44,675 bases of DNA from Gemmatimonadales bacterium (GTDB lineage Bacteria > Gemmatimonadota > Gemmatimonadetes > Gemmatimonadales > GWC2-71-9), in assembly GCA_035707305.1 (NCBI GenBank), contig DASSUE010000187.1, positions 1 to 44,675 of the forward strand, written 5' to 3'. Under the pieces are notes generated by a model. It was not told the origin of the DNA, did not search any database, and saw only the letters and a program-made list of their open reading frames with translations. Made by a program: the position numbers and the translations under genes. Positions 13,229-43,920 of the stretch are shown in pieces. Position 1 is the stretch's first letter, and the number at the start of each line of letters is the position of its first letter.

Positions 13229-13245
13229 CTTCACAACATCTTCAT
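13229..13245 (+). promoter_or_regulatory. Candidate response-regulator box upstream of P-family copy 1
   Basis: CTTCAC-aacat-CTTCAT with an exact 11-bp period, 44 nt upstream of the ATG at 13290. Confidence 0.5.
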
Positions 13246-14690: not shown

Positions 14691-15338
14691 ATGATCTTCG
14701 CCAATCGCTATGACGCGGGGCGCCGCCTGGCGGGGCTCCTTGAACGGTACCGGGCGGAGCGCCCCGTACTCCTCGCGCTGCCCCGAGGTGGCGTGCCGGT
14801 GGCATTTGAAGTGGCGCGGGCGCTCGGGGCGCCGCTGGACGTTTGCGTCGCCCGAAAGTTGGGTGTTCCCGGCGCCGAGGAAGTTGCGATGGGGGCGGTC
14901 GCCGGCGGAACTGCCGTGGTCGACCACGAGCTGATCGCTCGGCTCGGGATTCCGAATACGTACGTCCAGCGGGTGGTGGCCCGGGAAATCGCGGAGATGG
15001 CCCGCCAGGAAGGGACCTTCCGGCGTGGTCGCGCACCTATCGACGTCGCGGGGCGCACCGTTATCCTGGTCGACGACGGCCTGGCCACTGGAGCGACTGC
15101 GTACGCCGCGGTCAAGGCGCTCAGGACGCGCAACCCCCGTCGCATCGTATTTGCGTCGCCGGTTTGTGCCCCTGACGGCGCCGAAATGCTCCGTGGGGTC
15201 GCCGACGACGTGATCTGTGTCGACTGCCCGGCCGACTTCCGCGCGGTCGGACTCTGGTATGAGGATTTTTCGCCGGTGAGCGACGCCGAGGTGGTGGATT
15301 GCCTCGAAGCCGTAGCGCCGGGGAGGATTTCAGCATGA
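14691..15338 (+). CDS. Phosphoribosyltransferase-family protein (stress-island type)
   Basis: The ATG at 14691 is preceded by GGAAGGAG. It has LALPRGGVPVAFEVARALGAPLDV and the PRPP-binding loop VILVDDGLATGAT. This is the same type as the N-terminal half of mycobacterial PRTase-hydrolase fusions. Confidence 0.8.
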   Translation: MIFANRYDAGRRLAGLLERYRAERPVLLALPRGGVPVAFEVARALGAPLDVCVARKLGVPGAEEVAMGAVAGGTAVVDHELIARLGIPNTYVQRVVAREIAEMARQEGTFRRGRAPIDVAGRTVILVDDGLATGATAYAAVKALRTRNPRRIVFASPVCAPDGAEMLRGVADDVICVDCPADFRAVGLWYEDFSPVSDAEVVDCLEAVAPGRISA

Positions 15339-16051
15339 GCCCGGTGACAATGACACACGGTGCGCGAGCCGTGATGATCCCGGCCGATGGAGTACAACTG
15401 GCCGGCGAGCTGGCCTGGCCGCAGCATCCGGGCGGGATGGTGCTGTTCGCACACGGAAGCGGCAGCGGCCGACTCAGCCCGCGCAACCGCTTCGTGGCGG
15501 AGCGATTGCGGGATGCCGGCCTGGCGACGCTCCTGTTCGATCTGCTTACGGAGGGGGAAGCGGGCGACCGGCACAACGTCTTCGATATCCCACTGCTGGC
15601 GCGACGGCTGGTCGCGGCAACCACGTGGGCGGCGCAGCAGGCCGATCTCGCCGGGCTTCCCGTGGGGTATTTCGGCGCCAGCACCGGTGCCGCTGCGGCG
15701 CTCACGGCAGCGGCGTTGTCCCCTCTGGCAGCCGCCGCTATCGTCTCACGCGGCGGCCGGCCCGACCTCGCCGGCAATGCGTTGGACCGGGTAACCGCTC
15801 CGACGCTGTTGCTGGTGGGAGGCCGTGACCCGGTTGTGCTCGACCTCAACCGTGCAGCGCTCGCGCGGCTGCGGGGGCCGAGGGAACTGGTGATCGTACC
15901 CGGTGCCGGACATCTCTTCGAGGAGCGCGGTGCCATGGAAGCAGTCGCGGATGCGGCGGCCGGATGGTTCGTGCGCTACCTGGAACTGGAGCGGGTCTGG
16001 CGGGGCGCCCATTTGCGAAATGATCCGTCGGTGGCTGCCGGGCCGTGGTGA
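15335..16051 (+). CDS. Dienelactone-hydrolase-like alpha/beta hydrolase
   Basis: ATGA overlap with the PRTase stop, with GGGAGG upstream. Contains VLFAHGSGSGRLSPRNRFVAERL, GYFGASTGAAAAL (nucleophile elbow G-x-S-x-G) and VIVPGAGHLFEE. Confidence 0.75.
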   Translation: MSPVTMTHGARAVMIPADGVQLAGELAWPQHPGGMVLFAHGSGSGRLSPRNRFVAERLRDAGLATLLFDLLTEGEAGDRHNVFDIPLLARRLVAATTWAAQQADLAGLPVGYFGASTGAAAALTAAALSPLAAAAIVSRGGRPDLAGNALDRVTAPTLLLVGGRDPVVLDLNRAALARLRGPRELVIVPGAGHLFEERGAMEAVADAAAGWFVRYLELERVWRGAHLRNDPSVAAGPW

Positions 16052-19688: not shown

Positions 19689-21173
19689 TCAGACCGGCAG
19701 CATGGCAAGCAGCAGCCGGCCCCACTGCCGCAGCTGCCGGAACACCAGGAACTCCTCGAACGCGCGCCGTTGCGCCGTGCGGCCCCACGCCCGGAGACGC
19801 TGTGCATCCGCGAGCATCGTCGCCAGCGCTCGTTCGAGCTCGCCCTCGTCTTCCGGATCACGGACCAGCATGCCGTCCATGCCGTCGCGTATCTGCTGTC
19901 GCGGCCCACACGCGCGCGAATTGCTGAGCACTGGCAGCCCCTTCCACATGGCTTCGGTGATCGTGAGCCCGAACCCCTCGCGAAGCGAGTTCTGCACGAC
20001 GATCGTCGAGGCACGCTGGAGCGCGTTGACCAGCAGTGCGCTCTCCTCCGGGTGGTGCAGCGGGGTCGTGACGATGGCGATCTGGCTCTGAATCGAAGTG
20101 GGCAGGGCGAGGTAGGCCGCACGGAGTTCCTCGAGGACGCCGGCCGCTTCCGGGTCGTCCTGCACGGAACCTGGGTCCGGGCCCGCGAGCAGCAGACCGG
20201 CCAGCGCGAGGCTGCGGGCCGGCGTCCCCGGCTCAGCGGCCGTACTGGCGTGTGCGGCCTTCAGCCGCGCGAACGCTCGCAGCAAAGGCAGGAACCCTTT
20301 CAGCCGGTCCCAGCGGGACACCTGCGTCACCAGCGGCCGGCTGAGCAGGGCGAAACCATCGGGACCTTCCCGGTGCCGGAAGGTCCCGTCGGCGTGGAGC
20401 CACCGGCTGCGCTGGGCGAAGTAGCCGCCAACCATAGGCCCGGGGGAGAGGATCATGCCGCTGCTGGAGAGGACTTCGATGGTGTCTCGGATCGAGAGGT
20501 CGCGGTTCTTCGAGGCGAGGGGATCGATCCCCGGCAGGATAACGGTCGCGCGACCGGCCAGGCGGGGCGGGATGTACTCCGGAGCGGAGAAGACAGCTCG
20601 GTCGTACGCCGTGAGGTAGGGATCCAGGAAGCTCCACGCGGCCCTGGTGGCGGCGTTCTCCGTATCCACGCCGATGTGGCATCGCCAGACGGCTGCCAGC
20701 GACAGGCGGTCGCGGAGCATGAAGGCCAGCGGAAGCGGCTGCGGTTCATGAACGACCAGGATATCGTCGGTTCGAACCCACGAGGCGAGGGTCTGCGCAT
20801 TCTCCTGGTTCACCCGCTCGAAGAGGCGCCGCTCGGCGTCTCCCAGCTCCGGATCGCCTTCGCCGTGCACCAGGTTGTGCACGTGCTTCGTGAGCTCGAA
20901 GAATCCGGACTCCCGGCTTCCGATTGTCACCCACTCGGTGCGAATGCCGAGGTTGCGGAGAAACCGCACGATGGTCGGCAGCATCTCCGCCACGCCGCCG
21001 CCCACGGCAGTGGAGTTCACCAGCCAGACGGTGCGGCTTCCCAGTCGCGCCAGGAGCTCCCGGCCCTCGGCCCGCAGCTCGGCCACCGCGGGGGCGAGGT
21101 GTGCATAGCCGGCGTACTCCTCCATGGCAGGCGCCCCGGCCACCGGAACCCGCTGGAGCAGATTGGCACTCAT
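19689..21173 (-). CDS. GT4-family glycosyltransferase, TreT (trehalose glycosyl-transferring synthase)-like
   Basis: About 494 aa from the ATG at 21173 (the track starts at TTG 21179). VWLVNSTAVGGGVAEMLP near the N-terminus and the C-terminal SLREGFGLTITEAMWKGLPV (GT1/GT4 E-x7-E region) recall TreT-type enzymes. The specific TreT call is from memory. Confidence 0.6.
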   Translation of the reverse strand: MSANLLQRVPVAGAPAMEEYAGYAHLAPAVAELRAEGRELLARLGSRTVWLVNSTAVGGGVAEMLPTIVRFLRNLGIRTEWVTIGSRESGFFELTKHVHNLVHGEGDPELGDAERRLFERVNQENAQTLASWVRTDDILVVHEPQPLPLAFMLRDRLSLAAVWRCHIGVDTENAATRAAWSFLDPYLTAYDRAVFSAPEYIPPRLAGRATVILPGIDPLASKNRDLSIRDTIEVLSSSGMILSPGPMVGGYFAQRSRWLHADGTFRHREGPDGFALLSRPLVTQVSRWDRLKGFLPLLRAFARLKAAHASTAAEPGTPARSLALAGLLLAGPDPGSVQDDPEAAGVLEELRAAYLALPTSIQSQIAIVTTPLHHPEESALLVNALQRASTIVVQNSLREGFGLTITEAMWKGLPVLSNSRACGPRQQIRDGMDGMLVRDPEDEGELERALATMLADAQRLRAWGRTAQRRAFEEFLVFRQLRQWGRLLLAMLPV

Positions 21174-21435
21174 CTGCAAACCATGGCTTGCATGCCGCGT
21201 TTCATCTCCGCTTCACGGGGGCGACATACGGACATGTCCGAGGCGAACGCTCGTCACTCTATTACGATCCGAATCTTGCTCATCGGTGCCCCGTTGAGAA
21301 TACGAGCGGTAAGGACGCCGTCGAGAAGCCGTCGGCGGCGAGATCGCGGCGAGGCCGCGCGAAGGCGGCTGTGAGCTGGCGAACGCCCTGTCACCGAACG
21401 ACCAGCGATTCCGTTGGCTGAGGTCTGCAAGGCAG

Positions 21436-21480
21436 TTTCCTCCCTGCTTCACCTGTTCTTCATGATCCCTGCTCCAATCT
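21436..21480 (+). promoter_or_regulatory. Candidate response-regulator box plus -10 for the P3 / phosphorylase / Prs operon
   Basis: TTTCCT (21436), CTTCAC (21447) and CTTCAT (21458), followed by an 11-nt spacer and CAATCT (21475-21480). The ATG is at 21510. Confidence 0.5.
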
Positions 21481-21509
21481 GGACGAGACCCCGATACAGG
21501 AGGACTCCG

Positions 21510-22001
21510 ATGTCGATGACGCTGACCGTCCGGTCCGAGTCGCGGCGGAGCGCCACTGTTGGCGACGTCCTCACTCCGCTGCACGAGCGTTGGCTCGCTG
21601 CCGTTGAGGCGGCAGTGCAACCCGCGCTGCTTGGTACCAGCACGATCTGGGACCGCTGGGCCGCCACGCGGTATCTCGAGGAGCGGTTCGCCACCAGACT
21701 GGAGCTGGAACTCTCCCTGGTGCGTCTGACTGACGTCAGCACTCGGGACCGCGAGCGGATCGAGGCCGATTACACCCGGATCGAGCAGCTCCGCGGCGCG
21801 ATCGAAGCAGTGGCCAGCCGGCATCACACGGGTGGGCTGATCATGTCCCTGCTGCAGGAGTTGCTGAGCTCGCTCACGGGCTGGGTGATCGATGTGGAGC
21901 AGGCGACCGCCCGGATTCCGCTTGCAGCGCTGCCCGGCGAGGCGGTCCGGCTGCTCACAGAACTTGAAGCCGACCCGTTGGAAACGACGGGGCAGCAGTG
22001 A
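21510..22001 (+). CDS. Uncharacterised P-family protein, copy 3
   Basis: The ATG at 21510 is preceded by AGGAGG. LTPLHERW..LLGTSTIWDRWAATRYL..SRHHTGGL..GWVIDVEQ..IPLAALP. Its stop overlaps the GTG of the next gene (GTGA at 21998-22001). Confidence 0.7.
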   Translation: MSMTLTVRSESRRSATVGDVLTPLHERWLAAVEAAVQPALLGTSTIWDRWAATRYLEERFATRLELELSLVRLTDVSTRDRERIEADYTRIEQLRGAIEAVASRHHTGGLIMSLLQELLSSLTGWVIDVEQATARIPLAALPGEAVRLLTELEADPLETTGQQ

Positions 22002-23533
22002 CCACCAGCATCACCGTGCCTCAGGCGGCGCCGCGCGGTGCGGCGGCGCGCGCGCGACGTATCGGCGTCGACACCGGCCAGGAGGCGGTTGCCTACTTCC
22101 GAGCCGACTCCGCGGTCGTGCGGTCGGAGGGGTTCGATTGCGCCACCAGGGTCTGGGTGCGCTGCACCGGACGCGAAACGCTCGCGACGGTTCACGTGGT
22201 CTCCGGCCTCCTGAATCCGAATGAGGTCGGGCTGTCGGAGTCGGCCTGGCGCCGATTGGACCCGACTCCCGGTGCGCGGCTTGAGTTTGCGCATGCGGAG
22301 CCACTCGAGTCGGTGCGGCACGTGCGGTCCAAGGCGTTCGGCGCCCGGCTCGATGCGGGGGCGCTGCGATCGATCGTGCACGACATCGCCGAAGGCCTTT
22401 ACTCGGACATCCACCTGGCGTCGTTCGTCACCGCGTGCGCCGGCCGCAGGCTCGACCGCAACGAAGTTACCGATCTCACGGTGGCGATGCTCGAAGAAGG
22501 CAATCGGCTGCGGTGGGACCGGGAGGTGGTCGCCGACAAGCACTGCGTCGGCGGACTCCCGGGGAACCGCACGTCGTTGATCGTGGTGCCGATCGCCGCG
22601 GCGGCGGGCCTGCTCGTGCCGAAGACGTCATCGCGTGCGATTACCTCGCCCGCCGGGACCGCTGATACGATGGAGATGCTGGCGCCGGTCGACCTGGACG
22701 TGGGCGCGATGCGTCGCGTGGTGGAGCGGGAAGGCGCCTGCATCGTCTGGGGCGGATACGGCCGGCTGAGTCCAGCGGACGACGTGCTGATCCGGGTCGA
22801 GCGTCCGCTTGAGCTGGACAGCCAGGGGCAGTTGGTCGCCTCGGTGCTCTCCAAGAAGGCGGCGGCCGGCGCGACCCGCGTGCTGATCGATGTGCCGGTG
22901 GGCCCCACGGCGAAGGTCCGGTCCCCCGCCGAGGCGGAGCGGCTGTGCGCGGAACTCCGCGCGGTCGGGCGGGCTGTCGAGCTCGAAGTTCTGCCGGTGG
23001 TGACGGATGGGATGCAACCCGTTGGGAAGGGGATCGGGCCGGCGCTCGAAGCGCGGGATGTTTTGGCCGTGCTCGAGGGCAGTGCTGGGGCTCCGGCGGA
23101 CCTGCGCGAGCGGTCACTCCAGCTCGCGGGGCGCCTGCTGGAGCTGGGCGGCGCGGCGGCTGCGCCCACCGGACGCGCCACCGCCGGAGCCATTCTGGAC
23201 GACGGCCGAGCCTGGCGGAAGTTCCAGGCTATCTGCGACGCGCAGGGCGGCCTGCGGGAGCCACCCCGGCCGCGGCACATTCGCGCGGTCCCAGCCCGTT
23301 GCTCGGGACGGGTTTCCGCGATCGACAATCGCAGGCTCGCGCGTCTGGCTCGCTTGGCGGGAGCGCCGCATGATCCCGGTGCCGGGCTGGAGTTGCACGT
23401 GCGCATCGGTGACACCGTCGTCCCCGGTCAACCGCTGCTCACCCTGCACGCCGCCGCCCAAGGCGAGCTGGATTACGCCGTGGCTTACGCGGGCAGTGCG
23501 CGTGACATCATCGCCTTGGAGCGCAACCGATGA
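21998..23533 (+). CDS. Thymidine-phosphorylase-family protein, long form (AMP-phosphorylase-like with N-terminal extension)
   Basis: 511 aa. Family core HLASFVTACAGRRL...ADKHCVGGLPGNRTSLIVVPIAAAAGLLVPKTSSRAITSPAGTADTME plus a ~90-aa N-terminal domain, as in the archaeal AMP phosphorylase / 'putative thymidine phosphorylase' group. Confidence 0.8.
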   Translation: MTTSITVPQAAPRGAAARARRIGVDTGQEAVAYFRADSAVVRSEGFDCATRVWVRCTGRETLATVHVVSGLLNPNEVGLSESAWRRLDPTPGARLEFAHAEPLESVRHVRSKAFGARLDAGALRSIVHDIAEGLYSDIHLASFVTACAGRRLDRNEVTDLTVAMLEEGNRLRWDREVVADKHCVGGLPGNRTSLIVVPIAAAAGLLVPKTSSRAITSPAGTADTMEMLAPVDLDVGAMRRVVEREGACIVWGGYGRLSPADDVLIRVERPLELDSQGQLVASVLSKKAAAGATRVLIDVPVGPTAKVRSPAEAERLCAELRAVGRAVELEVLPVVTDGMQPVGKGIGPALEARDVLAVLEGSAGAPADLRERSLQLAGRLLELGGAAAAPTGRATAGAILDDGRAWRKFQAICDAQGGLREPPRPRHIRAVPARCSGRVSAIDNRRLARLARLAGAPHDPGAGLELHVRIGDTVVPGQPLLTLHAAAQGELDYAVAYAGSARDIIALERNR

Positions 23534-24492
23534 TCGTCCATTCTGCCGAGAATTCGCTGATTGCCGCGCTGCCGGGAAGCGAGCGGCTTGGGACCGATCT
23601 GGCCGAGCGACTCGGCGGCCGGCGTCAACTGGTCGAGATGCGGCGCTTCCCGGATGGTGAGTCGTACGTCCGAATCAATGGTCAGCTGCGGGACACACCG
23701 CTCGTGATCGTCGGACCGCTCGATCGACCCGACGAGAAGCTCCTGCCGCTGCTCCTCCTCGCCGCCACCGCACGCGAGCTCGGCGCCACCGAGGTGGGGC
23801 TGGTCGCACCCTACCTCGCCTATCTGCGGCAGGACCGTCGCTTCCGCCCCGGGGAGGCCGTGAGCGCGGTCCATTTCGCGAGGCTGTTGTCCGACCGCTT
23901 CGACTGGGTGGTGACTATTGAGCCGCACCTGCATCGCCTCCGAAATCTCGGCGACATCTACCAGGTGCCGGCCCGCGCGGTGAGTGCCGGACGGCTGATC
24001 GCCGCCTGGATTCGGGCCAACGTTCAGCGGCCCGTGATCATCGGCCCTGACGAGGAGAGCCGGCAGTGGGTGGAGCCGGTCGCTGCCGCGGCGGATGCCC
24101 CGTTCATCGTCGTGCGGAAATGCCGCGTCGGTGACTTCCACGTTGAGGTGTCGCTGCCGGACTTGGCAGCGTTCCGGGATCGAACACCCGTCGTTCTCGA
24201 CGACATCATATCAACGGGGGGCACGGTGGAGCAGATCGTTCGTATGCTGGTCGGCGCCGGATTTCCGGCTCCCGCCTCCATCGCGGTGCACGGGATATTC
24301 GCGGGCGACGCCTACGAGCGGATCGTCAACGCCGGTGCGAAGGTCATCGTGACCTGCAACACCATACCGCACGTGAGCAACGCTATCGATGTGACGGCTC
24401 ACTTAGCGGCAGCGGCGCGGGCGATGCTGGAGCGCACGGCGGAGGGATGGAACGAGCGTGCATCCCCGTCCGCAATCGCGGTGGAGCAATAA
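23530..24492 (+). CDS. Ribose-phosphate pyrophosphokinase (Prs)-family protein
   Basis: ATGA overlap with the upstream gene. Contains RRFPDGESYVRI, VAPYLAYLRQDRRF and the PRPP loop VVLDDIISTGGT. Confidence 0.8.
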   Translation: MIVHSAENSLIAALPGSERLGTDLAERLGGRRQLVEMRRFPDGESYVRINGQLRDTPLVIVGPLDRPDEKLLPLLLLAATARELGATEVGLVAPYLAYLRQDRRFRPGEAVSAVHFARLLSDRFDWVVTIEPHLHRLRNLGDIYQVPARAVSAGRLIAAWIRANVQRPVIIGPDEESRQWVEPVAAAADAPFIVVRKCRVGDFHVEVSLPDLAAFRDRTPVVLDDIISTGGTVEQIVRMLVGAGFPAPASIAVHGIFAGDAYERIVNAGAKVIVTCNTIPHVSNAIDVTAHLAAAARAMLERTAEGWNERASPSAIAVEQ

Positions 24493-24530
24493 CAGCTGCG
24501 GCCGGGGCCGCAATCGAGGCCTCCAAGATC

Positions 24531-41493: not shown

Positions 41494-42330
41494 ATGGAGC
41501 TTCAAAGAATCGTCGTCGCGGCGGATGAGTCGGAGGCCAGCCGGCAGGGGATCCGGACGGCACTGGCTTGGGGGTCGGCTCTGGCTGCCCCCGTCACGCT
41601 ATATCACGTGGTCTCGCGGACGCCAGCTGCGGCGCTAGTGCCGGTGGGTGGGCCTGAATCAAAGCGGTCTTGCGCTGGCGACGCACTCGGCGCGCTGGAG
41701 GCATGGGTGACGGCCGAGCTGGCCGATCAGCCCGACCGTGTCGCCCCCGCAGTGGAGACGGGGTACGGCCTCCCGGGCGTCGAGATCCCCCGATTCGCCG
41801 AACGCTTAGGCGCGGAGCTGCTCGTGCTGGGTCGTAAGCCGCGTTCCAACGCCCAACGAATGTTCCAGGGGGATACCGCAGACGCCGTCGCGCGGCGCAG
41901 CACCGTCCCATGCCTGTTCGTGCGAAAGCCCCTTCTCGCCCCCGCCCGCATGCTTGTGGCGGTCGATGGGACCGAACGGGGCATGACGGTCCTCGAATTC
42001 GCCCGAAGCGTCGCGGCGCGGCTCAACACCACTCTCAGCGGAGTGATCGTGGAACGTTCGTTTGCCGGGGAGGCTGCCAGCCTCGCGACCTCGGTGCCGG
42101 CTGCTCGAACAGCCGCGCTGCAGCGACGGGTCAACGGCGCGCTCCGGCCACTGCTGGTGCGCCGTGGGGATGCGGCTGCCGAGATCTTGCAGGCGGCGGA
42201 GGAGGTGGGCGCTGAGGTGATCGTCATCGGTTACCGACGGGGAGGACCGCCGGGCGTCATCGAGGCTGGCAGTGTGGCGCGCTACGTCTCCCATCACGCA
42301 CGGTGCGCTGTTCTTACCGTCCCACTCTGA
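41494..42330 (+). CDS. Tandem universal stress protein
   Basis: 278 aa. RIVVAADESEASRQGI...LLVLGRKPRSNAQRMFQGDTADAVARRSTVPCLFV and a second repeat MLVAVDGTERGM...VIVIGYRRGGPPGVIEAGSVARYVSHHARCAVLTV. Confidence 0.85.
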   Translation: MELQRIVVAADESEASRQGIRTALAWGSALAAPVTLYHVVSRTPAAALVPVGGPESKRSCAGDALGALEAWVTAELADQPDRVAPAVETGYGLPGVEIPRFAERLGAELLVLGRKPRSNAQRMFQGDTADAVARRSTVPCLFVRKPLLAPARMLVAVDGTERGMTVLEFARSVAARLNTTLSGVIVERSFAGEAASLATSVPAARTAALQRRVNGALRPLLVRRGDAAAEILQAAEEVGAEVIVIGYRRGGPPGVIEAGSVARYVSHHARCAVLTVPL

Positions 42331-43012: not shown

Positions 43013-43203
43013 CGATGCGTTGCGTGTGCTACCGATGGTGCCGCGGCACCGACGCGCGCTGGTCACCACCGTGCGCGACCGCTCCCCAGGACTAGGGCCG
43101 GTCCCTGAAGGCATGGCGGCGCGGCGATCATTGAAGGGCGATGGGGGCCTACCACCGGCTCACCTGCGGATCCTCCCTGCAGGTCTCAGGAGGCCAGCCG
43201 AGT

Positions 43204-43920
43204 ATGAAGCGCACCCTCGGAACAGTTCGATTGGGCGGCGCGGTCCTGGGCGCCGCCGGTATCGCGGCGCTTTCCTATGCGGGTTATGCCGCGACGACAT
43301 GGGCGCGGTACGGGCGCCGCGATGCCCCACATAGTCCTGACCCGCTGCTCGATCGCTTCATGCCCGACTACGAGGTTGCCGAGCGGCACGAGCTGCGCGT
43401 CCGCGCGCCGGCTGAGATCGTATACTCGGCCGCGTGCAACCTTGACCTCACCTCGTCCCCGGTCGTGCGAGCGCTCTTCGCTGGCCGGTCATTGATCATG
43501 GGAGCAAAAGGGTCTCGAAGCGAGCCACCCGGGCCCCTCCTGCAATACATGCAGGCGCTTGGGTGGGGGCTTCTCTCCGAAGTGGCCGGGCGCAAGGCCG
43601 TGTTCGGTGCCTTCACGCAGCCGTGGCGCGCTGAGGTTGCCCTCCATCGCGTGCCACCGGACGAGTTCGCGGCCTTCGCGCACCCCGGATACGCGAAAAT
43701 CGTCTGGACGATCGAAGCCGAACCAGCGGCCGGCGACGGCTCCATCGCTCGGACCGAGACCCGGGTCACCACGACCGATCCAGAGTCGCGCGAGCGGTTC
43801 CGCCGCTACTGGGCGGCGTTCTCGCCGGGGATTCTCCTGATCCGTCGCCAGTTGCTCAGAGCAATTCGTCGGGAGGCGGAGCGGGCTTGGATGGCCCGGC
43901 GAGTCCCGGCGACCATCTAG
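43204..43920 (+). CDS. Hypothetical membrane-anchored protein (possible SRPBCC/START-like fold)
   Basis: The ATG at 43204 has AGGAGG upstream. It has an N-terminal TM helix (LGGAVLGAAGIAALSYAGYAA) followed by a ~200-aa soluble domain. The fold guess rests only on the mixed beta/alpha sequence character. Confidence 0.4.
   Translation: MKRTLGTVRLGGAVLGAAGIAALSYAGYAATTWARYGRRDAPHSPDPLLDRFMPDYEVAERHELRVRAPAEIVYSAACNLDLTSSPVVRALFAGRSLIMGAKGSRSEPPGPLLQYMQALGWGLLSEVAGRKAVFGAFTQPWRAEVALHRVPPDEFAAFAHPGYAKIVWTIEAEPAAGDGSIARTETRVTTTDPESRERFRRYWAAFSPGILLIRRQLLRAIRREAERAWMARRVPATI

Follow-up and report, generated by a model that had tools for sequence, protein, structure and literature searches.

A candidate operon for nucleotide and ribose-phosphate recycling headed by a small clade-specific protein in a soil Gemmatimonadales genome

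The window considered here, i.e., a GC-rich (~67%) stretch of 44,675 nucleotides on contig DASSUE010000187.1 of a soil Gemmatimonadales genome (GCA_035707305.1), carries a three-gene plus-strand operon that codes, in order, for a small acidic protein termed P3, a long-form phosphorylase of the NP-II family and a Prs-like ribose-phosphate diphosphokinase (Table 1). The genes are chained by two 4-nt stop/start overlaps, GTGA (21998–22001) at the P3/phosphorylase junction and ATGA (23530–23533) at the phosphorylase/Prs-like junction, and the regulon box in the promoter region of the operon lies 47–63 nt upstream of the P3 start codon. The CTTCAY-N5-CTTCAY pattern of this box, with at most one mismatch allowed, occurs nine times in the window, against 0.28 occurrences expected from shuffled sequences. 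All three open reading frames (ORFs) are real genes, as seen in the profile scores and, for P3, in the presence of paralogues and a confident structural model. Thus, the arrangement proposed in a first-pass annotation of this DNA, with three genes linked by GTGA and ATGA overlaps behind one box-containing promoter, can be read directly from the sequence.

Table 1. Coordinates of the operon, its signals, the P paralogues with their neighbors, and the alternative head proteins of a sister clade (positions refer to the window unless a locus is named)
Feature	Coordinates	Strand	Details
P3	21510–22001	+	ATG 21510, TGA 21999–22001; acidic four-helix-bundle protein, 163 aa, pI 5.0
Shine-Dalgarno AGGAGG	21499–21504	+	5–6 nt 5' of the P3 ATG; read from the sequence
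Long-form NP-II phosphorylase	21998–23533	+	511 aa; GTG start inside the P3 stop
Prs-like ribose-phosphate diphosphokinase	23530–24492	+	320 aa; ATG start inside the phosphorylase stop
Regulon box CTTCAC-N5-CTTCAT	21447–21463	+	two CTTCAY hexamers in 11-bp phase; operon promoter region
TreT-like gene	19689–21179	-	divergent from the P3 operon
GC-rich hairpin	24496–24513		between the convergent Prs-like and RtcB genes; terminator-like score, minus strand
P1	13290–13766	+	37% identical to P3; own box at 13229–13245
P2	14126–14614	+	46% identical to P3; own box
Phosphoribosyltransferase (PRTase)-domain gene	14691–15338	+	76 nt 3' of P2; ribosome-binding site GGAAGGAG, ATG 14691
Dienelactone-hydrolase-like alpha/beta hydrolase	15299–16051		overlaps the PRTase-domain gene after P2
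P4	42584–43012	+	distant paralogue, GLCQH-type subgroup; after a tandem universal stress protein (USP) gene (41494–42330), before the 259-aa gene
259-aa gene	43141–43920		3' of P4; no Pfam or NCBIfam match
210-aa head protein	L102:7577–8209	-	sister Gemmatimonadota clade
210-aa head protein	L065:4661–5290		sister Gemmatimonadota clade
210-aa head protein	L101:7673–8263		sister Gemmatimonadota clade

The phosphorylase contains the three-domain NP-II core (Glycos_trans_3N, Glycos_transf_3 and PYNP_C), each domain scoring above its Pfam cut-off, and passes the cut-offs of both NF003338 (654.6 bits; cut-off 434) and TIGR02645 (582.6 bits; cut-off 434.6). That it belongs to the long form is apparent from the start of Glycos_trans_3N at residue 111, from the NF003338 match, which spans residues 17–507, and from an alignment with the AMP phosphorylase structure 4GA5 that begins at residue 66, ahead of the core; the additional N-terminal domain taken as diagnostic of AMP phosphorylases measures ~85–100 residues. 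This structure, from Thermococcus kodakarensis, is also the closest solved one (359.6 bits, versus ~90–130 bits for classical pyrimidine nucleoside phosphorylases (PyNP) and thymidine phosphorylases (TP)). The active-site loops, DKH(C/S)(V/I)GGLPGNRT and KTSSRAITSPAGTADTME, are near-invariant across 83 family members and almost the same as in 4GA5. By homology, then, the protein is predicted to be a relative of the archaeal AMP or nucleoside monophosphate (NMP) phosphorylases, which convert a nucleoside 5'-monophosphate and phosphate to the free base and ribose-1,5-bisphosphate, the first step of the AMP or pentose bisphosphate pathway. The T. kodakarensis enzyme (4GA4/4GA5/4GA6) is likewise a long-form NP-II protein with an extra N-terminal domain and has almost the same phosphate- and ribose-binding loops. 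Unlike it, the protein of the window is bacterial, scores under the cut-off of the AMP-phosphorylase equivalog and is partnered by its own Prs-like gene rather than by ribose-1,5-bisphosphate isomerase and RuBisCO. A role of the active-site cysteine as a redox switch was considered and set aside, with cysteine present in ~51 of the 83 members and serine in ~28.

The Prs-like protein reaches 382 bits on NF005537 (PRK07199; cut-off 322), and both the Pribosyltran_N and the Pribosyltran domains are found in it. Its closest structural relatives are the class III phosphoribosyl pyrophosphate (PRPP) synthases, the best being 1U9Y at 144 bits, and the catalytic motifs RFPDGE, RQDRRF, PHLHR, GPDEES, KxRxGD and DDIISTGGT are kept and align with 1U9Y and 4TWB. 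PRPP synthases make PRPP and AMP from ribose-5-phosphate and ATP, and the sequence places the window protein in a putative class III-like subfamily of these enzymes, class III structures being closer to it than those of class I. The class III enzymes of Methanocaldococcus jannaschii (1U9Y/1U9Z) and Sulfolobus (4TWB) share its two-domain architecture and catalytic motifs, and the ribose-5-phosphate loop DDIISTGGT is identical. Relative to them, the NF005537 subfamily has additional invariant residues (PHLHR, ESxQW, KxRxGD and H..N.ID) and, unlike the archaeal enzymes, the Prs-like gene accompanies a class I Prs as a second copy and almost always overlaps or is fused with a phosphorylase gene. 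A parallel, useful as a lead only, might also be struck with the phage NARP1, in which a Prs-like protein, Adps, and a transferase together rebuild a nucleotide cofactor: the likeness lies in the combination of a Prs homologue with a ribosyl-transferring enzyme, whereas the partner family differs and the window offers no phage context. Both enzyme assignments of the first-pass annotation, an N-terminally extended phosphorylase of ~500 residues and a ribose-phosphate pyrophosphokinase homologue as its partner, are borne out; its further assignment of the phosphorylase to the archaeal AMP-phosphorylase type stands at the level of homology, with 4GA5 as the closest structure, and does not extend to membership of the equivalog.

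The enzyme pair is spread across several bacterial phyla. Searching genome contigs with an alignment of Prs-like proteins as the anchor yielded 80 loci from Bacteroidota, Alpha-, Beta- and Gammaproteobacteria, Verrucomicrobiota, Acidobacteriota, Bdellovibrionota and Gemmatimonadota. In 71 of 79 loci, a full phosphorylase ORF stands immediately 5' of the Prs-like gene and on its strand; the overlap between them is 4 nt in 35 loci and 1 nt in five, and the other loci have gaps of at most 16 nt where the start could be placed. The coupling extends to in-frame fusions of the two enzymes, namely P0271 (823 aa, L169:4001–6472), whose contig bears BON, beta-CASP and USP genes as well, and P0272 (770 aa, Ahniella). 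That these are only ~60% identical across the junction favors a maintained natural fusion over one assembly error. A beta-CASP RNase of the aCPSF1-like kind (Lactamase_B, Beta-Casp and RMMBL domains) is present in 52 of the 80 loci, 37 of which show the order RNase, phosphorylase, Prs; it is a frequent rather than a defining member of the cassette, and the window has none. USPs, a P-type ATPase and an Mrr_cat-like protein also recur in the neighborhood. In the phosphorylase tree, transfers between phyla are apparent; branch lengths of only 0.002–0.004 separate the enzymes of Pseudomonas rhodesiae, a Burkholderiales metagenome-assembled genome and Pigmentiphaga, an indication that the cassette moved horizontally very recently.

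One of these operons has been placed in a low-oxygen regulon. In Bradyrhizobium diazoefficiens, bll3117-bll3116-bll3115 is induced in microoxia at both the protein and the mRNA level (PMC6515984), has a FixK2 box and is 6.6- to 30.6-fold down in a fixK2 mutant (PMC9104804). Its products are a thymidine phosphorylase family protein, Prs and a metallo-beta-lactamase (MBL)-fold hydrolase, so that it shares with the window operon the phosphorylase→Prs pair and the low-oxygen type of regulon. In contrast to the window operon, it includes the beta-CASP/MBL hydrolase and lacks P, and its control rests on an FNR/CRP-type FixK2 palindrome as opposed to the direct-repeat CTTCAY box. The paper on the Burkholderia lxa locus makes no mention of the phosphorylase/Prs-like pair.

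The association of P with the phosphorylase is conserved on a narrower scale. In genomes having both P and the pair, P is always immediately 5' of the phosphorylase: four (G000, G137, G119 and G175) show the full P→phosphorylase→Prs order, in G165 no Prs-like gene follows, and the junction of G013 coincides with a contig break. At the P/phosphorylase junction, four genomes show ATGA or GTGA and a fifth shows TGATG. The phosphorylases of these genomes are ~65% identical and the P proteins only 26–32%. A CTTCAY box precedes P in all five related P→phosphorylase genome loci and in six of nine metagenome loci. When soil metagenome contigs were scanned with an alignment of the P subgroup, P→phosphorylase was recovered in 12 of ~35 assessable contigs with a P2/P3-type gene, making it the commonest single context of the subgroup, and three more contigs had decayed remnants of the pair. 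The P-linked phosphorylases all fall into one clade (support of 100 in the Shimodaira–Hasegawa-like approximate likelihood ratio test, SH-aLRT), which argues that P was recruited once. Thus, the three-gene order, whose conservation in other genomes the first-pass annotation had put forward as a check, does recur elsewhere, and does so within only one clade of one Gemmatimonadota family.

The enzyme pair has also been lost repeatedly, with P retained. In four decayed operons (L107 of genome G125, L121, L126 and L130), P is followed by a 42-aa N-terminal fragment of the phosphorylase, or C-terminal fragments of the Prs-like gene are left, and USP or PRTase genes come after the remnants. In a sister clade of Gemmatimonadota, the head slot of the cassette is occupied by an unrelated 210-aa protein (Table 1), which has its own 4-nt overlap with the phosphorylase start. 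It has no Pfam match and its predicted model is unusable (predicted local distance difference test, pLDDT, 39.9); any PD-(D/E)xK likeness of its sequence is no more than an impression.

P itself belongs to a family of restricted distribution, with 234 representatives among 1.84 billion proteins, and is present in 14 of 301 sampled Gemmatimonadota genomes, all of one family. P3 has no match in Pfam, NCBIfam, PADLOC or the PDB, by sequence or by profile. AlphaFold models it with confidence as a four-helix bundle (pLDDT 92.6), and the family alignment shows invariant W50, W125 and E130 with near-invariant H25, W28, W47, R49 and E67 in proteins that are mostly acidic (median pI 5.7). Foldseek found nothing under an E-value of 0.1 in the PDB. 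VIA-align returned generic helical bundles only, the best at Z 11.9, a value that falls in the background range of such folds; hemerythrins are among the many matches at Z 9–10, equally within that background. The best ESM Atlas neighbor (TM 0.58) falls in a cluster with PF01814 in 25% of its members, and a feature search of the ESM Atlas with P gave unnamed clusters only. The four long helices are common to P and to hemerythrin/HHE and other up-down bundles; P has no PF01814 Pfam match and no significant sequence or Foldseek match to hemerythrin/HHE proteins. The hemerythrin di-iron site is not found in P, as only H25, E67 and E130 are conserved rather than the His/Glu/Asp set. A reading of P as a HEPN-type RNase was likewise dropped, with no Rx4-6H motif conserved in these mostly acidic proteins. 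No P–enzyme fusion was found among the 234 representatives: two candidates, P0235 and P0224, have low-complexity extensions that are probably mis-called and show neither a Pfam domain nor similarity to the phosphorylase.

These patterns suggest a low-oxygen or dormancy-type operon for the recycling of nucleotides and ribose phosphate with a clade-specific P protein at its head, a reading to which a probability of roughly 0.55 may be given. The flanking genes, coding for a TreT-like glycosyltransferase, a BON protein, RtcB, archease and USPs, constitute a dormancy-type context. A single transcript would issue from the promoter with the phased CTTCAY repeats as part of the island's low-oxygen, dormancy-type regulon; P3 has a strong ribosome-binding site of its own from which it would be translated, and the two products after it would be made by chain translation, each gene beginning within the preceding stop codon. 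The core would be the cross-phylum pair of an NMP phosphorylase relative and a class III-like PRPP synthase. From their natural fusion and their translational coupling, the two may be seen as acting together, the direction being told by neither feature; probably in one assembly, they would break down or re-route nucleotides and ribose phosphate upon failure of respiration. The nucleotides would be drawn from RNA freed by the nuclease standing first in the cassette of most other lineages; in this Gemmatimonadales clade, the small acidic four-helix protein P, recruited once, would have come to occupy the head position. The first-pass annotation had also proposed nucleotide or ribose-phosphate recycling during non-growth, and the proposal gains from the cross-phylum pair, the RNase partner and the FixK2-controlled, low-oxygen operon of Bradyrhizobium; its enzymatic part stays at the level of activities predicted from homology. 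A more ambitious version, wherein one machine would turn RNA-derived NMPs into PRPP, with the Prs-like enzyme acting on ribose-1,5-bisphosphate and P taking the place of the nuclease as a regulatory subunit of the phosphorylase that senses redox state, oxygen or a metabolite, appears improbable; a route from ribose-1,5-bisphosphate to PRPP is not known for the Prs enzyme family.

Several observations weigh against the recycling reading, some bearing on the chemistry and others on P. On the side of the chemistry, the phosphorylase does not reach the AMP-phosphorylase equivalog TIGR03327 (EC 2.4.2.57; 476.6 bits versus a cut-off of 535), and its product is no known substrate of the Prs-like enzyme. 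Neither a ribose-1,5-bisphosphate isomerase of the IF-2B family nor PhnN was found in this genome, which is 92% complete, and the only RuBisCO_large match is weak (65.8 bits). The latter lies in a 370-aa frame (C433:1404–2135) with no IF-2B family partner found, and is probably a RuBisCO-like protein rather than a carboxylase. With the isomerase and PhnN not found and the RuBisCO match weak, the known onward routes from ribose-1,5-bisphosphate are untraced here. The two enzymes might be joined by an undescribed use of the bisphosphate by the Prs-like enzyme, by combining a PRPP synthase with a base-attaching enzyme, or by a further connecting enzyme. The second of these would reverse the direction: the Prs-like enzyme would make PRPP, and the phosphorylase-like protein, as a TrpD homologue, would use PRPP or ribose-1,5-bisphosphate and a free base to make a nucleotide, so that salvage under stress would not depend on the housekeeping Prs, which is inhibited by ADP. 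Enzymes of successive steps are typically the ones that become fused or tightly coupled, anthranilate phosphoribosyltransferase is a member of the fold family (weak TrpD matches were obtained), the Prs-like protein keeps every catalytic motif of real PRPP synthases, the nearby P2 module has a further PRTase, and the failure to find a bisphosphate-consuming enzyme in the genome fits such a scheme as well. Yet the active-site loops match those of the phosphate-using AMP phosphorylase almost residue for residue and the frequent RNase partner points to breakdown rather than synthesis, so that a synthetic direction is held to be unlikely, if the most serious of the alternatives for the enzymes.

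On the side of P, its association with the phosphorylase goes back to one evolutionary event; none of the 80 loci of other lineages has it, three of the eight Gemmatimonadota genomes having the pair lack it, and its paralogues stand before or after other modules (a PRTase/hydrolase pair, USPs and the 259-aa gene). Moreover, 4-nt overlaps are common in GC-rich operons and alone are no proof of a complex. The absence of P from these loci and the contexts of its paralogues, along with the lack of fusions among the 234 representatives and the unrelated 210-aa protein in the same slot of the sister clade, would be expected if P were an independent stress-regulon protein, e.g., a degenerate hemerythrin-like or another four-helix ligand-binding or sensor protein, that only shares the transcript while the pair functions as it does without P. 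Against such independence, a stop/start overlap is kept in five genomes despite the low identity of the P proteins, and P→phosphorylase is the favored context of the P2/P3 subgroup and survives even in the absence of a Prs-like gene. A link of P with the phosphorylase is favored by the conserved overlap, whereas the absence elsewhere and the other contexts argue for an add-on; the idea of P as a subunit or regulator of the pathway, put forward in the first-pass annotation, is therefore possible but weakened. Since the pair works without P in other lineages and the paralogues head other modules, P is not a core subunit but at best a clade-specific accessory or regulator. That it acts as such an accessory of the phosphorylase, by a putative contact as regulator, sensor or assembly factor, is suggested tentatively, at somewhat less than even odds; otherwise it would be a co-expressed stress protein, and full independence of P is rated a little lower still.

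Two further readings can be given much less weight. A dormancy or anti-phage module that depletes the cell of nucleotides by draining the NMP and ATP pools would accord with the combination of nucleases and nucleotide-cleaving enzymes and with the mobility of the cassette, as seen in the near-identical phosphorylases of Pseudomonas, Burkholderiales and Pigmentiphaga. It is nevertheless very unlikely: none of the three operon proteins matched a defense system in PADLOC, the neighboring nucleases gave only marginal matches, and the context is one of stress and low-oxygen genes rather than of defense islands, with FixK2 regulating the Bradyrhizobium operon. The names given by automatic annotation would make the two enzymes an ordinary housekeeping thymidine phosphorylase and PRPP synthetase. 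The genome, however, has a separate class I Prs (contig C22, 434.7 bits on PRK01259) and a separate short TP/PyNP (contigs C431/C382); the pair occurs in only eight of the 301 sampled Gemmatimonadota genomes, NF005537 is above its cut-off in none of 14 model genomes, and the operon stands behind a stress-regulon box. The operon enzymes are therefore extra copies, and the housekeeping reading is rejected as the least credible of all.

The known part of this picture is the enzyme pair, which is widespread over phyla, and the new part is P as its head gene; the operon is a clade-specific variant of a widespread cassette. The archaeal relatives feed a pathway that is apparently lacking in this genome, and the bacterial pair thus probably has a function that has yet to be described. 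Its control by low oxygen appears to have been achieved through two unrelated regulators, FixK2 in Bradyrhizobium and that of the direct-repeat box here. The Gemmatimonadales variant can be seen as a natural experiment, wherein the nuclease partner has been swapped for a small clade-specific protein, and may show how the pair is controlled. The subject to which these observations belong, the handling of RNA and nucleotide pools in non-growing, oxygen-starved bacteria, is poorly understood, and knowledge of the chemistry of the pair would close a gap in how dormancy metabolism is modeled for soil bacteria, symbionts and opportunists.

Some features of the surroundings may also be recorded. The 330-nt region between P3 and the TreT-like gene has two boxes, as a second copy with one mismatch, TTTCAT-N5-CTTCAC, lies at 21200–21216 (plus strand), 21–37 nt from the start of the divergent TreT-like gene. 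At the other end, the hairpin behind the Prs-like gene may be a candidate for the end of the plus-strand operon too. The four P copies of the genome all lie in the window, P3 having two clear paralogues and one weaker one. The PRTase and hydrolase domains coded after P2 may resemble the fused PRTase/hydrolase Rv0571c of the Mycobacterium tuberculosis DosR regulon. The arrangement around P4, with a tandem USP, P4 and the 259-aa gene, is also found in relatives, and the 259-aa gene recurs beside P-family genes in related genomes (L106 and L119) at 55–56% identity. The only beta-CASP RNase homologue of the genome, 34–41% identical to the cassette RNases, is on contig C472 (L089 149–3359), in the gene row upp (uracil PRTase), beta-CASP, DUF218 and NUDIX, which is another link of this RNase type with nucleotide salvage.

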